NCBI GenBank assembly: GCA_964395115.1 | Contig: CAYMZX010000003.1 | Coordinates: 14,111-78,110, forward strand | DNA length: 64,000 nucleotides | Source of the DNA: an uncultured Gammaproteobacteria bacterium | GTDB lineage: Bacteria; Patescibacteriota; Microgenomatia; UBA8517 | Reading direction: 5' to 3' | Part shown: in pieces, positions 1-7,435 of the stretch | Position numbering within the stretch: the stretch's first letter is position 1 | Layout: each line of letters starts with the position of its first letter | Notes under the pieces: generated by a model | The model's database searches: none | Told to the model about the DNA's origin: nothing | What the model saw: the letters and a program-made list of their open reading frames with translations, nothing else | Made by a program: the position numbers and the translations under genes

Positions 1-1043
1 TTCTTGGGAGAGTGCCAAGTTTTAAGTCGGTAATCTATTTTTTCTTTGAGCTCTCTAACTAGCGTCATCAGCCCGTTTTCGTCGTAGTTCGACTTGCCAT
101 CCGGCGTTTCCCTTTCTAGCAGGTTGACTTTATCTAGTGCCCCCTCCGTTAACAAAACCTCCATCGTGGCCAGATATTTGCGTTTCAATAACTCTTTGCT
201 CGGCATTGCATACCAGTTGAGTATCTCCCGCGGAACCTGCTGTCCTTTGTATGAGACCGTACTTTTTTCATTCTCCTCCTCGATTCTAAATATTTCCCTG
301 ATAAACCTAATTTTGGCTTGGGATAATTTCTCGTTCATAAAAGTTTTTTTGTCGCCGGCGGTATCGTCTAAGTCAATTTGGTGAACGGCGGCAACGGCCA
401 TACGCCAAAAAACGCTATCGTCTTGATATTTAATTGCTTTCTCTCTCAACCCCTCTTTTGCCGTCTCGGGCAAGGGTCCGCGATTAACGGACAGGCCGGC
501 TGGCTCGCTAGCATAGGCAAGTTCGTAAAATGTGGATACCGGGTCGCTTCTAAGTCTCTCCCGAACCCATTCTGACATCATTCTTTTGCCGTCAAAAAAC
601 TTCTCAATAGGCACGCCTAACCCAACCAAAATTGAAAAAGTGCTCTCTCCCCACCTGATATCTGCAACAAGTCTGTCTAGCCACGCTCCGGCCTCCTCGT
701 TTCCACTAGGGATTTCAAGCCCTGCTCTCTCAAGGGCCTCTCTTTGAACATCAAACCATAGCTCGTCATATCTTGAATCGTATGGATAGGGGTTTCTAAA
801 TCTCAAAAGGTGGCGGTCCAAAATTCCTTCAATTTTTGATAATACTGCGTGCATTAAAATCTCGCGATTTTGTTCAATCTCTTTTCTGATATTTTCTTTT
901 TCGCTTTCCGCTGCGCGCGGGAGTCTCTTCAAAGAATCTATTATTGAGGTAAGACTAGAGTCGGCCATATAGTAGGCTCTTTCCGTCTTTCTTGTTTCTA
1001 TCCCGAATAGCTCTTCTGGGCTTATTCCCTCCTTCTCTTGCAT
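1..1043 (-). CDS. Hypothetical protein, partial. The N-terminus (MQEKEGISPEELFG...) is at 1043 and the C-terminus lies beyond the left edge of the window.
   Basis: I translated the minus strand by hand from the ATG at 1043-1041 down to position 1 and found no stop (>347 codons). The supplied track omits it because it is truncated by the window edge. The plus-strand ORFs at 94-747 are its shadow frames. I recognised no family. Confidence 0.5.
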   Translation of the reverse strand, partial: MQEKEGISPEELFGIETRKTERAYYMADSSLTSIIDSLKRLPRAAESEKENIRKEIEQNREILMHAVLSKIEGILDRHLLRFRNPYPYDSRYDELWFDVQREALERAGLEIPSGNEEAGAWLDRLVADIRWGESTFSILVGLGVPIEKFFDGKRMMSEWVRERLRSDPVSTFYELAYASEPAGLSVNRGPLPETAKEGLREKAIKYQDDSVFWRMAVAAVHQIDLDDTAGDKKTFMNEKLSQAKIRFIREIFRIEEENEKSTVSYKGQQVPREILNWYAMPSKELLKRKYLATMEVLLTEGALDKVNLLERETPDGKSNYDENGLMTLVRELKEKIDYRLKTWHSPK

Positions 1044-1153
1044 ATTTTTATTTTTATTTTACCACCCGCCTAGCAATTCTGACAATTTTCTGTGAAAAAG
1101 GCTTCCACTTGAAATCGCCTCTTCACGAAGTAACCTTTAGTTAGGCGTCTGCC

Positions 1154-2203
1154 ATGGAACAACACGCAATACCACAACAAATTTCTTCTTATCAATTTCG
1201 ACTGGTCGGAGATATGACTTTAAAACAATTTTTTCAATTGGCCGGGGGGCTTTTGTTTTCTCTTCTTTTCTACGCTTGCCCCCTGCACCCGCTTATTAAA
1301 TGGCCCTTTATCGTTTTTTTTGCCGTTCTGGGAGTCGCGCTTGCCTTCCTTCCTTTTGAAGAAAGGCCTTTAGAAAAATGGATAGCCGCTTTTTTTAGAT
1401 CGGTCTATTCGCCAACTATTTTTTATTGGCAGAAGACCGTCCACCCCGCTGTTTATTTCCAAGAGGAGGCTCCTGTTCCTGCCGAAAGAATCGTAGCGCC
1501 CCGGGGCGAAAAGGCCCTAAAAGAATACTTGGGCTCAATACCCGAGTCGCCATTTTTGTCGGCGGTGGAAGCGGCGGAGAAGGCCTTTTTGTCCAAAATA
1601 ACAGAGCTTATTGGAGGTTCGCTTGTCAGACCAAAACAAATCGCAGAAACCAAATCTACTTTTCCGCCGAAACAGAAAAGCGAGCTTATAATTCCCCGCC
1701 AGGAGGCCGTCGTGATATCGCCCCCCTCAAAACCGCGGGTTGTCGTTGAAGAAAAACTTGACGAAGGCCGGGCTTCTATTTCCCCCGCGAAACTAACTGG
1801 CGTGGCTCCAGCTATCGAATCTTATGGACCAATTTCCGGAGCAGAAGCCCAGTTTGCTCCCGAAGCGGCACCTCCCCTACCACCAACAACCCCCAATATT
1901 GTTGTCGGTCAAATTTTGGATGAATCTGGAAAAATAATCGACGGAGCAATTATGGAAATAAGAGATGCTGCCGGGCGACCAGTAAGGGCCCTTAAAAGCA
2001 ATAAACTTGGTCACTTCATGATCGCAGCCCCATTGTCAAACGGAAGGTACGAAATGATTATCGAAAGGGAAGGATTCATTTTTGACCCGATCATTTTCGA
2101 GACAAATGGAGAGATAATTCCACCGATTGTTATTAAGGCCAAAGCCAGGCCTCAGCCCGTTGTTAGCGAACCGAACTATGGCGGGTCGGCCGCCCAGATA
2201 TGA
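1154..2203 (+). CDS. Membrane protein with an N-terminal two-TM hairpin (VirB3/PrgI-like topology), a Pro-rich linker and a C-terminal carboxypeptidase-regulatory-like beta-sandwich
   Basis: 349-aa ORF. Residues ~25-70 form two hydrophobic helices. The C-terminal region (VVGQILDESGKIIDGAIMEIRDAAGRPVRAL...GRYEMIIEREGF) matches the CarboxypepD_reg/PEGA-like pattern. It sits immediately upstream of the VirB4-like genes. Confidence 0.6.
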   Translation: MEQHAIPQQISSYQFRLVGDMTLKQFFQLAGGLLFSLLFYACPLHPLIKWPFIVFFAVLGVALAFLPFEERPLEKWIAAFFRSVYSPTIFYWQKTVHPAVYFQEEAPVPAERIVAPRGEKALKEYLGSIPESPFLSAVEAAEKAFLSKITELIGGSLVRPKQIAETKSTFPPKQKSELIIPRQEAVVISPPSKPRVVVEEKLDEGRASISPAKLTGVAPAIESYGPISGAEAQFAPEAAPPLPPTTPNIVVGQILDESGKIIDGAIMEIRDAAGRPVRALKSNKLGHFMIAAPLSNGRYEMIIEREGFIFDPIIFETNGEIIPPIVIKAKARPQPVVSEPNYGGSAAQI

Positions 2204-6861: not shown

Positions 6862-6889
6862 TAATTTAAAGTGCTCAATCGTGCATGAT

Positions 6890-7435
6890 ATGAGAAGGAT
6901 AAGAACTAAAATTGTCATTATTTCTCTAGTCGTCGTTTCAATCGGGGCGATGCTTGTTTTCTTTTGTCCCCGACCGGAAAAATCCCCAGTAGAATTGCCA
7001 GTCAGGGGCGCCAGCTACAAATCTCTCTCCCCCGGAATAAGTACAAAAAGGGAAGTTATTGCTGTCTTGGGAAAGCCCTTAAACGATGATTCCTCAAGTC
7101 TGCTCCGTTTCAATTCAAGCAATCCCAATCTTCCGATGGAAATTTCCTTTGTTGACGATAAAGTAGTTTTTATCAAGGAAATCGTCACGACGAAGGACGG
7201 AAAAACCGCCGACGATATCACTTCACAATATGGGACTGCCCCTCACTTTCTCTATGGACCCGCTTCGGTCAATGGTTTTAACCTTTATGTTTACCCTGAT
7301 AAAGGAATCGCCTATGTCGGCCATGTTGCAGAACCTGTTATTTTGGAAGTTTGGTATTTTCAACCAATCTCGCTTGAGGAATTTCAGCGAAGATGGGCTC
7401 CAAACTATTCAAAAACCCATCGGCCTATCCAATAG
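6890..7435 (+). CDS. Hypothetical membrane-anchored/secreted protein
   Basis: I placed the start at MRRIRTKIVIISLVVVSIGAML (ATG at 6890, after the upstream stop at 6861) rather than at the track start 6788. It has a single N-terminal TM/signal anchor and no recognised family. Confidence 0.5.
   Translation: MRRIRTKIVIISLVVVSIGAMLVFFCPRPEKSPVELPVRGASYKSLSPGISTKREVIAVLGKPLNDDSSSLLRFNSSNPNLPMEISFVDDKVVFIKEIVTTKDGKTADDITSQYGTAPHFLYGPASVNGFNLYVYPDKGIAYVGHVAEPVILEVWYFQPISLEEFQRRWAPNYSKTHRPIQ

Follow-up and report, generated by a model that had tools for sequence, protein, structure and literature searches.

The 64,000-nucleotide (nt) stretch of contig CAYMZX010000003.1 analyzed here (the window) opens with a block of genes beside dnaN and dnaA. 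This block is very probably the right-hand, distal half of a chromosomal Patescibacteria type IV secretion system (T4SS) in a Microgenomates/Woesebacteria-like genome, where it would serve as a host-interaction conduit. An earlier model-generated note on the same DNA (the original prediction) had proposed a T4SS-like chromosomal apparatus at the origin rather than an integrated conjugative element (ICE), and the identity of the VirB4 ATPase, the T4SS-type neighbors and the conserved synteny all bear this out. The Patescibacteria T4SS is a descendant of the monoderm (MPF-FATA) type, and the system itself is already known (Wang 2023; Quinonero-Coronel 2025), its dnaA-adjacent position, TrsD, pilin arrays and absent relaxase included. 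The remark that such systems are poorly characterized does not hold at the genomic level, where they have been described down to their place beside dnaA (PMC12102498; PMC10633639). Our additions are minor: a structural VirB6 candidate for Microgenomatia, eight ancient pilins with positional orthologues, and a peptidase with an interchangeable head.

We read the window together with 8.8 kb to its left, 72.8 kb in all; the leftward extension of the source contig, which look-ups of exact proteins gave as the 74.9-kb JGI metagenome contig Ga0212092_1000194, is locus L004, in which a coordinate equals the window coordinate plus 8847. A scan with one genome per species gave 433 loci that encode the family of a 565-residue (aa) protein of this module, and 80 of these were fetched for comparison. 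The five plus-strand genes originally described all exist as placed, but the real module comprises about 17 genes, half of them left of the window. Its full order is a divergent SpoIID-domain gene, eight pilin genes, the genes for a 713-aa and a 565-aa protein, a convergent 749-aa gene, then PrgI/VirB3-like, TrsD, VirB4, 736-aa and 181-aa genes, followed by dnaN and dnaA.

VirB4, its partners and the chromosomal setting

The core of the module within the window consists of three genes:

1154..2203, plus strand: VirB3/PrgI-like membrane protein, 349 aa (PF12666 PrgI; CarboxypepD_reg in orthologues)
2200..2859, plus strand: TrsD-like protein, 219 aa, the VirB4 N-terminal domain as a separate polypeptide (NF041427, VirB4 models)
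2856..4646, plus strand: VirB4 ATPase, 596 aa, middle and C-terminal P-loop domains (NF045971, Pfam and PDB sequence matches)

The ATPase was first described as of VirB4/TraC type, and this is what the 596-aa protein proves to be. It matches the NCBIfam VirB4 equivalog NF045971 (conju_CD1110) at 386.5 bits against a cut-off of 325 (E 2.4e-115), over profile positions 179-751 of 752. Its PDB sequence matches are VirB4s only, namely 4ag5 from Thermoanaerobacter (1.9e-46) and TrwK of R388 (3e-05), and neither HerA nor FtsK is among them; the grouping with FtsK/HerA that the original prediction had named as refuting it did not appear. Pfam matches are P-loop_TraG (8.8e-31), AAA_10 and, over part of its length, DUF87 (4.2e-09). 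The Walker A (ATSGAGKS, about residues 260-267) and Walker B (LLVVDE, 466-471) motifs are intact, and no other gene of the locus is as well conserved, identity to Woesebacteria/Microgenomates orthologues being 63-88%.

Directly upstream, the 219-aa protein matches NF041427 (TrsD/TraD) at 8.7e-06 and aligns with the N-terminal parts of full-length VirB4 models (positions 104-233 of NF045975 and 24-119 of NF045971), and a weak PF26593 TraC-like match is recorded for it in the source database. Together, the 219- and 596-aa proteins tile one VirB4. They are separate open reading frames (ORFs) in 59 of 61 related loci, so the split is the natural state of the gene and not a frameshift, and they are fused in frame in the other two (L016:16903-19524 and L020:16274-19021), which confirms TrsD as a detached VirB4 N-domain. 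The earlier description of an ATPase in two pieces thus stands as regards the two ORFs, which reflect a conserved TrsD and VirB4 arrangement rather than damage. That the two-piece gene is a frameshifted pseudogene, or codes for a HerA/FtsK-type ATPase, such that the block is decayed or is no T4SS at all, has next to no probability: the split itself and the DUF87 (HerA central) and AAA_10 domains could be read that way, but the split is conserved with overlapping start and stop codons, the gene is better conserved than any other at the locus, the curated VirB4 cut-off is passed with VirB4s as the only PDB sequence matches, and both Walker motifs are whole.

In seven related Woesebacteria/Microgenomates genomes the Walker A P-loop of VirB4 is interrupted by an in-frame insertion of about 560-620 aa, whose junctions (GAGK|[S/C]...VHN|S(Y/F)FVK) are hallmarks of inteins. 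The window VirB4 is free of it (GAGKSYFVK, residues 263-271). The intein-bearing VirB4 genes are:

L014:16282-19998
L017:18704-21439
L019:8452-12063
L024:7608-11411
L043:17122-20664
L073:11992-15249
L081:17567-21094

The first gene of the plus-strand block had been described as a two-helix VirB3/PrgI-like protein with a beta-sandwich, and its orthologues agree: PrgI and CarboxypepD_reg are each matched in 41 of 41, with best E values of 4.8e-09 and 1.3e-08. In the 349-aa protein, two N-terminal transmembrane (TM) helices (about residues 25-67) are joined by a variable linker rich in Pro to a CarboxypepD_reg-like beta-sandwich at the C-terminus (about 248-335); a PDB search with the PrgI-like family returned nothing useful. 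T4SS similarity among the neighbors of the ATPase, which the original prediction had asked to be checked, thus extends from PrgI in all 41 orthologues and the TrsD match to the PF18895 pilins and the VirB6-like fold described below. Start and stop codons overlap as ATGA at the 349/219 (2200) and 219/596 (2856) junctions and a spacer of only 4 nt (4647-4650) separates the 596- and 736-aa genes, so the 349-, 219-, 596- and 736-aa genes form one tightly coupled operon. Promoter-like sites in a scan did not exceed the expectation from shuffled sequence, and terminator-like sites, mostly within genes, numbered 21 against about 10.5 expected from shuffling.

The module was said to abut dnaN, dnaA and oriC. 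Both genes are confirmed, dnaN lying 12 nt downstream of the last module gene, and the DnaA boxes and GC skew agree with a plausible assignment of the origin beside the module:

7447..8556, minus strand: dnaN (DNA polymerase III beta clamp), right border of the module (three DNA_pol3_beta Pfam domains, source database)
8682..8758, no strand: cluster of three DnaA-box-like sites in the dnaN-dnaA spacer, probable oriC
8736..10100, minus strand: dnaA (Bac_DnaA, Bac_DnaA_C, source database)

Perfect DnaA boxes occur three times in the 64 kb, and two of them flank dnaA (8682-8690, and 10153-10161 in the dnaA-rpmH spacer). The GC skew switches its sign at about 8-12 kb. The dnaN-dnaA spacer also holds a 16-nt direct repeat (family D12) at 8604-8619 and 8704-8719 (GTTGATAAGTGGAAAA / GTTGATAAGTGTAAAA).

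A tblastn search of the 80 related loci with all module proteins recovered a single conserved gene order, present in at least 60 Microgenomates genomes. For 15 related loci the fetched sequence reached 3.5 kb or more past VirB4, and 11 of them have dnaN after the module. The comparison of synteny that had been suggested therefore shows the order beside dnaN to be kept in many Microgenomates genomes. This Microgenomates-type locus occurs with the same synteny in many metagenome-assembled genome records titled 'uncultured Gammaproteobacteria' (L009, L010, L014, L016, L021 and others), and these titles look like placeholder or incorrect taxonomy.

Neither relaxase, coupling protein nor integrase was found in the module ORFs, the ten largest other window ORFs (among them housekeeping genes for LeuRS, GroEL, DnaK, MurJ and UvrD-type helicases) or the 8.8 kb to the left, and a repeat search gave no flanking or att-like repeats beyond chance, as the original prediction had it. 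Conserved synteny, the lack of relaxase and coupling protein, and the lack of flanking repeats indicate a fixed chromosomal locus rather than a mobile element. VirB4, TrsD and PrgI are closest to proteins of Gram-positive plasmids and ICEs (NF045971 CD1110, NF045975 Mbov_0397 ICE, NF041427 TrsD), and the pilins weakly match an ICE pilin-like family (NF045849), as might be expected of an integrated conjugative element, or its remnant, whose T4SS moves DNA to other cells. Such an element is nevertheless very unlikely, since none of the mobility genes or repeats just mentioned was found in the ORFs examined, while the same gene order occupies the same chromosomal place, from the SpoIID gene to dnaN, in dozens of divergent genomes, and GC content is not sharply different from that of the flanks. 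Moreover, of 3,035 Patescibacteria genomes only 103 have relaxases, and VirB4 is inherited mostly vertically within classes (PMC12102498).

Envelope components and the genes left of the window

The contig had been proposed for extension to the left, and there eight pilin genes and the 713- and 565-aa genes were found, with no relaxase or coupling protein in those 8.8 kb. The apparent lack of a pilin was an artefact of the window edge, just beyond which these genes lie:

L004:1-860, minus strand: SpoIID-domain gene with a coiled-coil N-terminus, divergent, directly upstream of the pilin array
L004:933-3752: eight tandem VirB2-like pilin genes, 103-130 aa (PF18895)
L004:3764-5905: secreted 713-aa protein, Cys-rich and probably lysozyme-like in its C-terminal domain, candidate for the VirB1 role
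L004:5933-7630: polytopic VirB6-like candidate, 565 aa (predicted structure)

Seven of the eight pilin genes match T4SS_pilin (PF18895), five of them above the cut-off, and only the first carries a classical signal peptide. In all 38 loci with a contiguous eight-gene array, every gene has the window-genome pilin of equal rank as its best match. Positional orthologues share 45-67% identity, far more than the paralogues within this genome (mean 23%, maximum 36%), which indicates that the eight pilins are ancient and individually conserved and argues against a rapidly varying pilin array in this class. The SpoIID-domain gene, found at its position in 48 of the 80 related loci, might belong to the module as another wall-remodelling component.

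The 713-aa protein is probably lysozyme-like, on sequence grounds, and thus a VirB1 candidate. No significant Pfam, NCBIfam or PADLOC family was found for it, but six of its 44 orthologues reach Pfam PF18896 SLT_3 (lysozyme-like), with a best E value of 1.5e-10. The C-terminal consensus of the family reads 'GVNPAxxLxIWLxESGASNY', and the window-genome protein reads 'GINVPLTLWIWLHESDASNY', with '...LWIWLHESDASNY' as the conserved motif; in one SLT_3-matching orthologue that was examined, a weak match (E 0.0019) aligns with this motif. The SLT_3 check was negative for the window-genome protein and its closest relatives, and only more distant orthologues match. The assignment is therefore probable and not certain. 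Orthologues range from about 300 to 1,690 aa, and some carry NAGPA phosphodiester glycosidase, GDSL lipase or GH5 cellulase domains.

The family of the 565-aa protein is large (at least 1,567 matches); its named members are Woesebacteria, Shapirobacteria or Microgenomates, and it has no Pfam domain. Sequence profiles (Pfam, NCBIfam, PADLOC, PDB) found nothing with either the protein or its family. Its predicted structure (predicted local distance difference test, pLDDT, 70.7; predicted template modelling score, pTM, 0.60) has TrwI/VirB6 and DotA as its top natural matches, and a designed helical repeat protein was matched as well. We therefore regard it as a VirB6 candidate for Microgenomatia, at the level of the modelled fold. 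Such a candidate fits a published survey that calls VirB6 'scarce or absent' in Microgenomatia, 'suggesting extreme sequence divergence' (PMC12102498).

The gene directly 3' of virB4 had been read as a possible VirB6-like channel fused to an analogue of a cell-wall hydrolase, with an extracytoplasmic HExxH domain. The motif is real, and the parts of the protein are as follows:

4651..6861, plus strand: predicted membrane-anchored extracytoplasmic peptidase, 736 aa (homologue alignment, AlphaFold model)
residues 1 to about 330: helical N-terminal region, cytoplasmic
residues about 331-447 (nt 5641-5991): Gly-rich TM cluster with an invariant FIINSGAxVVPP motif
residues 457-577 (nt 6019-6381): immunoglobulin (Ig)-like beta-sandwich (Foldseek)
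residues 585-736 (nt 6403-6858): gluzincin head
6643..6762, plus strand: putative zinc site, H665-E666-x-x-H669 (nt 6643-6657) and E704 in an EGFAEA motif (nt 6760-6762)

The HExxH reads H665-E666-S-G-H669 in the window protein, and both histidines, the glutamate and E704 are invariant in an alignment of HExxH-type heads. Thirty-eight relatives share the N-terminal region, the Gly-rich TM cluster that ends in FIINSGAxVVPP and the Ig-like domain, and they differ in their C-terminal heads, which are HExxH, Peptidase_M23 or CHAP at the equivalent position. Two of them (P0011 and P0038) carry a DnaJ J-domain at about residues 109-183; this puts the N-terminal region on the cytoplasmic side and may point to a connection with Hsp70. 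In the AlphaFold model only residues 1-110 and 457-736 are confident, pLDDT being below 50 for 245-456. The head family is small, comprises 202 representative clusters among 1.84 billion proteins and is almost always C-terminal in proteins of 600-1100 aa.

In its HExxH motif, downstream glutamate and gluzincin catalytic fold, the zincin head resembles secreted M34 endopeptidases, and we take the spacing from HExxH to the glutamate to be like that of M34 gluzincins. Scans of the 736-aa protein with Pfam, NCBIfam and PADLOC gave no significant family; profiles of the head gave motif-level matches only (Reprolysin_5, eCIS_core, M48), with no Pfam ATLF match and no PDB sequence match. We read the protein as the membrane-anchored envelope hydrolase of the system, with an interchangeable head and a function comparable to that of PrgK, TraG or VirB1.

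It is improbable that the 736-aa protein instead combines a hydrolase with the system's VirB6-like channel. Its place beside virB4 and its several hydrophobic helices would suit a channel, and large hydrophilic domains occur in known 'extended VirB6' proteins (PMC12857230), but the TM region is short, Gly-rich and modelled with low confidence, and the at least five TM helices with sequence or fold similarity that mark VirB6/TrbL/PrgH were not found in it. Furthermore, the same locus encodes a separate polytopic protein, of 565 aa, that retrieves TrwI/VirB6 and DotA, and the 736-aa homologues differ mainly in the hydrolase head, as expected for an anchored enzyme. Of the two halves of the earlier reading, the hydrolase analogue is thus upheld by the M23 and CHAP heads of homologues, and the VirB6 role would pass to the 565-aa gene outside the window.

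Two further genes complete the block:

2..1043, minus strand: C-terminal 347 codons of a 749-aa gene (in full L004:7641-9890), an ORF that runs off the left edge
6890..7435, plus strand: 181-aa protein with one N-terminal TM/signal-anchor helix and an extracytoplasmic domain

The large uncharacterized ORF that had been noted at the left edge is thus the 3' part of the 749-aa gene, which converges on the operon and encodes a soluble, highly charged protein without any Pfam, NCBIfam or PADLOC match. All 63 related loci have a large minus-strand ORF (526-1083 aa) between the VirB6-like and PrgI-like genes. By sequence these ORFs form at least five clusters, between which hhalign found no link (probability at most 13%); an iterative hidden Markov model search to unite those of the 63 loci stalled at 16 members, and a Pfam scan of 45 of them found nothing consistent. 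Among 5.8 billion proteins only eight homologues of the 749-aa protein were found; the closest is 42-43% identical, as against up to 88% for VirB4. The position is always filled and its sequence is hypervariable.

The small secreted protein of the original prediction corresponds to the 181-aa gene, with its signal anchor and extracytoplasmic domain; its start is called at 6890, where 6788 had been implied. No significant family (Pfam, NCBIfam, PADLOC) or PDB match was found for it, and tblastn places the gene at the same position in 10 of the 80 related loci. It may be an accessory protein.

Proposed mechanism and direction of transport

The mechanism that follows is drawn from the roles of homologous parts; our own observations are the homology of these parts and their conserved arrangement. 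VirB4, its N-domain supplied as TrsD, would dock at the membrane via the VirB3-like protein and power assembly, the VirB6-like protein would be the membrane platform or channel, and the eight pilin-like proteins would assemble into a tube or pilus outside the cell. Local opening of the wall, that of the cell itself and possibly that of the host, may fall to the lysozyme-like protein and the anchored peptidase. The machine would most probably be the conduit that links an episymbiotic cell with its host, for delivery of effectors or import of host macromolecules. A conjugation apparatus is not indicated, because the locus has no relaxase or coupling protein and is fixed in the chromosome.

Transposon sequencing found T4SS genes, the pilin array included, essential for epibiotic growth of S. 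epibionticum, the one species tested (PMC10633639), and both effector delivery and uptake of nutrients or nucleic acids have been discussed as roles, with the role itself called unknown (PMC12857230; PMC11665869). Within the host-interaction reading, we consider importer and exporter about equally probable. A narrower proposal, a machine devoted to uptake that would bring in host DNA, RNA or nucleotides in the manner of H. pylori ComB or archaeal Ced rather than secreting, is a real possibility, though not one we would favor. These organisms are without nucleotide synthesis; in S. epibionticum competence is dispensable and the T4SS essential (PMC11665869); and a 2026 preprint describes tubular structures, possibly T4SS pili, at the parasite-host interface and links them to acquisition of host RNA (bioRxiv 10.64898/2026.06.21.733656). 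The absent coupling protein would also fit an importer, as would weak matches to CedB (48.8 bits) and CedD (29.9 bits); these, however, fall far short of the cut-offs (700 and 600) and stem from the ATPase fold that the families share, no component that binds DNA or RNA was recognized at the locus, and the sequence holds no indication of transport direction.

Several points weigh against a host-interaction T4SS as proposed here. The role of the Patescibacteria T4SS has been termed 'completely unknown' (PMC11665869). The 349-aa protein of the window itself scores 25.1 bits against PF12666 PrgI, about 2 bits short of the cut-off of 27, and no family match to a VirB8-like component (PrgL/TraM, NTF2-like) was found at the locus. 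The zincin head may act on proteins and not on peptidoglycan, because the endopeptidases that it resembles cleave proteins. Finally, about 75 kb of the genome has been seen, and a coupling protein could be encoded elsewhere.

A more far-reaching proposal, which we put forward as rather doubtful, is that the Microgenomatia T4SS is a machine of fixed composition, in which the eight pilins would be non-redundant subunits of one heteromeric tube and not an antigenic-variation array, the hypervariable gene would encode a host-specific substrate, effector or adaptor in an arms race with the host, and the class would have its 'missing' VirB6 in the 565-aa protein.

The T4SS is among the few machines common to almost all of the ultra-small Patescibacteria (CPR). 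For the large uncultured class Microgenomatia, the locus now offers several handles, including VirB6 and VirB1 candidates, eight pilin orthogroups, a swappable head (zincin, M23 or CHAP) and a hypervariable embedded gene, and these by-products bear on the question of effector injection versus extraction of host material.

Comparison with known systems

Among single components, the zincin head was compared with the M34 gluzincins PPEP-2 and PPEP-3 (6fpc, 9g0j) and the catalytic domain of anthrax lethal factor. Unlike these, it has no family profile match, is predicted to be tethered to the membrane via the Ig-like domain and TM cluster, and gives way in homologues to M23 or CHAP domains at the equivalent position.

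At the level of the whole system, Gram-negative VirB/Trw machines (A. tumefaciens VirB; R388 Trw, PDB 7o3v) differ in composition: VirB5, VirB7, VirB9, VirB10 and VirB11 are absent here, eight pilin paralogues stand in place of one, and similarity to VirB6 is at fold level only.

H. pylori ComB and archaeal Ced are alike in being driven by VirB4, chromosomal, without relaxase or coupling protein, and in serving the physiology of their own cell. Unlike these systems, the locus has no identified DNA-binding component, and its CedB score, at 48.8 bits against 700, gives no membership at the sequence level.

The Gram-positive MPF-FATA systems (TrsC/TrsD/TrsE of pGO1/pSK41; Prg/Pcf of pCF10 with PrgH/I/J/K/L; CD1110 of CTn2) share a CD1110-type VirB4, PrgI, the separation of TrsD and VirB4 as in staphylococcal pGO1, a membrane-anchored wall hydrolase beside the ATPase (PrgK/TraG with M23, SLT or CHAP) and the lack of outer-membrane core proteins. 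In contrast to these systems, the module is fixed in the chromosome, with no relaxase, coupling protein, PrgB-type adhesin or VirB8-like PrgL found. Among the ORFs examined over the 72.8 kb there was neither the relaxase nor the type IV coupling protein that would define a conjugative MPF-FATA system. Additionally, the Gram-positive systems are without VirB2-like pilins, whereas pilins are present here, and PrgI has an extra beta-sandwich.

The closest counterpart is the Patescibacteria T4SS as known from S. epibionticum ML1 (SEML1_0006-0019; PMC10633639) and from a survey of 3,035 Patescibacteria genomes (PMC12102498). In that survey VirB4 was found in 2,417 genomes, mostly as one clade nested in MPF-FATA, TrsD was the most abundant accessory component, PrgI/VirB3 homologues were reported, and arrays of 2-11 VirB2-like pilin genes were described especially from Microgenomatia and Saccharimonadia; there were almost no relaxases, and in Paceibacteria and Microgenomatia the T4SS lay near dnaA, dnaN, rnpA and rpmH (PMC12102498). 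The locus studied here likewise has an MPF-FATA VirB4, a separate TrsD, PrgI/VirB3 nearby, a pilin array, a place near dnaA/dnaN and no relaxase or coupling protein. The known Patescibacteria systems also share with it the divergence of their tandem pilins, peptidase and lysozyme genes beside virB4, the chromosomal location and, in Microgenomatia, adjacency to dnaA/dnaN, and we see no difference in kind. The differences are of detail: VirB6 was 'scarce' in the Microgenomatia of the survey and a link of VirB1 to virB4 was rare, gaps that the 565- and 713-aa candidates would fill; the hydrolase head is an M34-like zincin; and where pilin arrays were suggested to give variation (PMC12102498), the array here consists of eight fixed positional orthologues.

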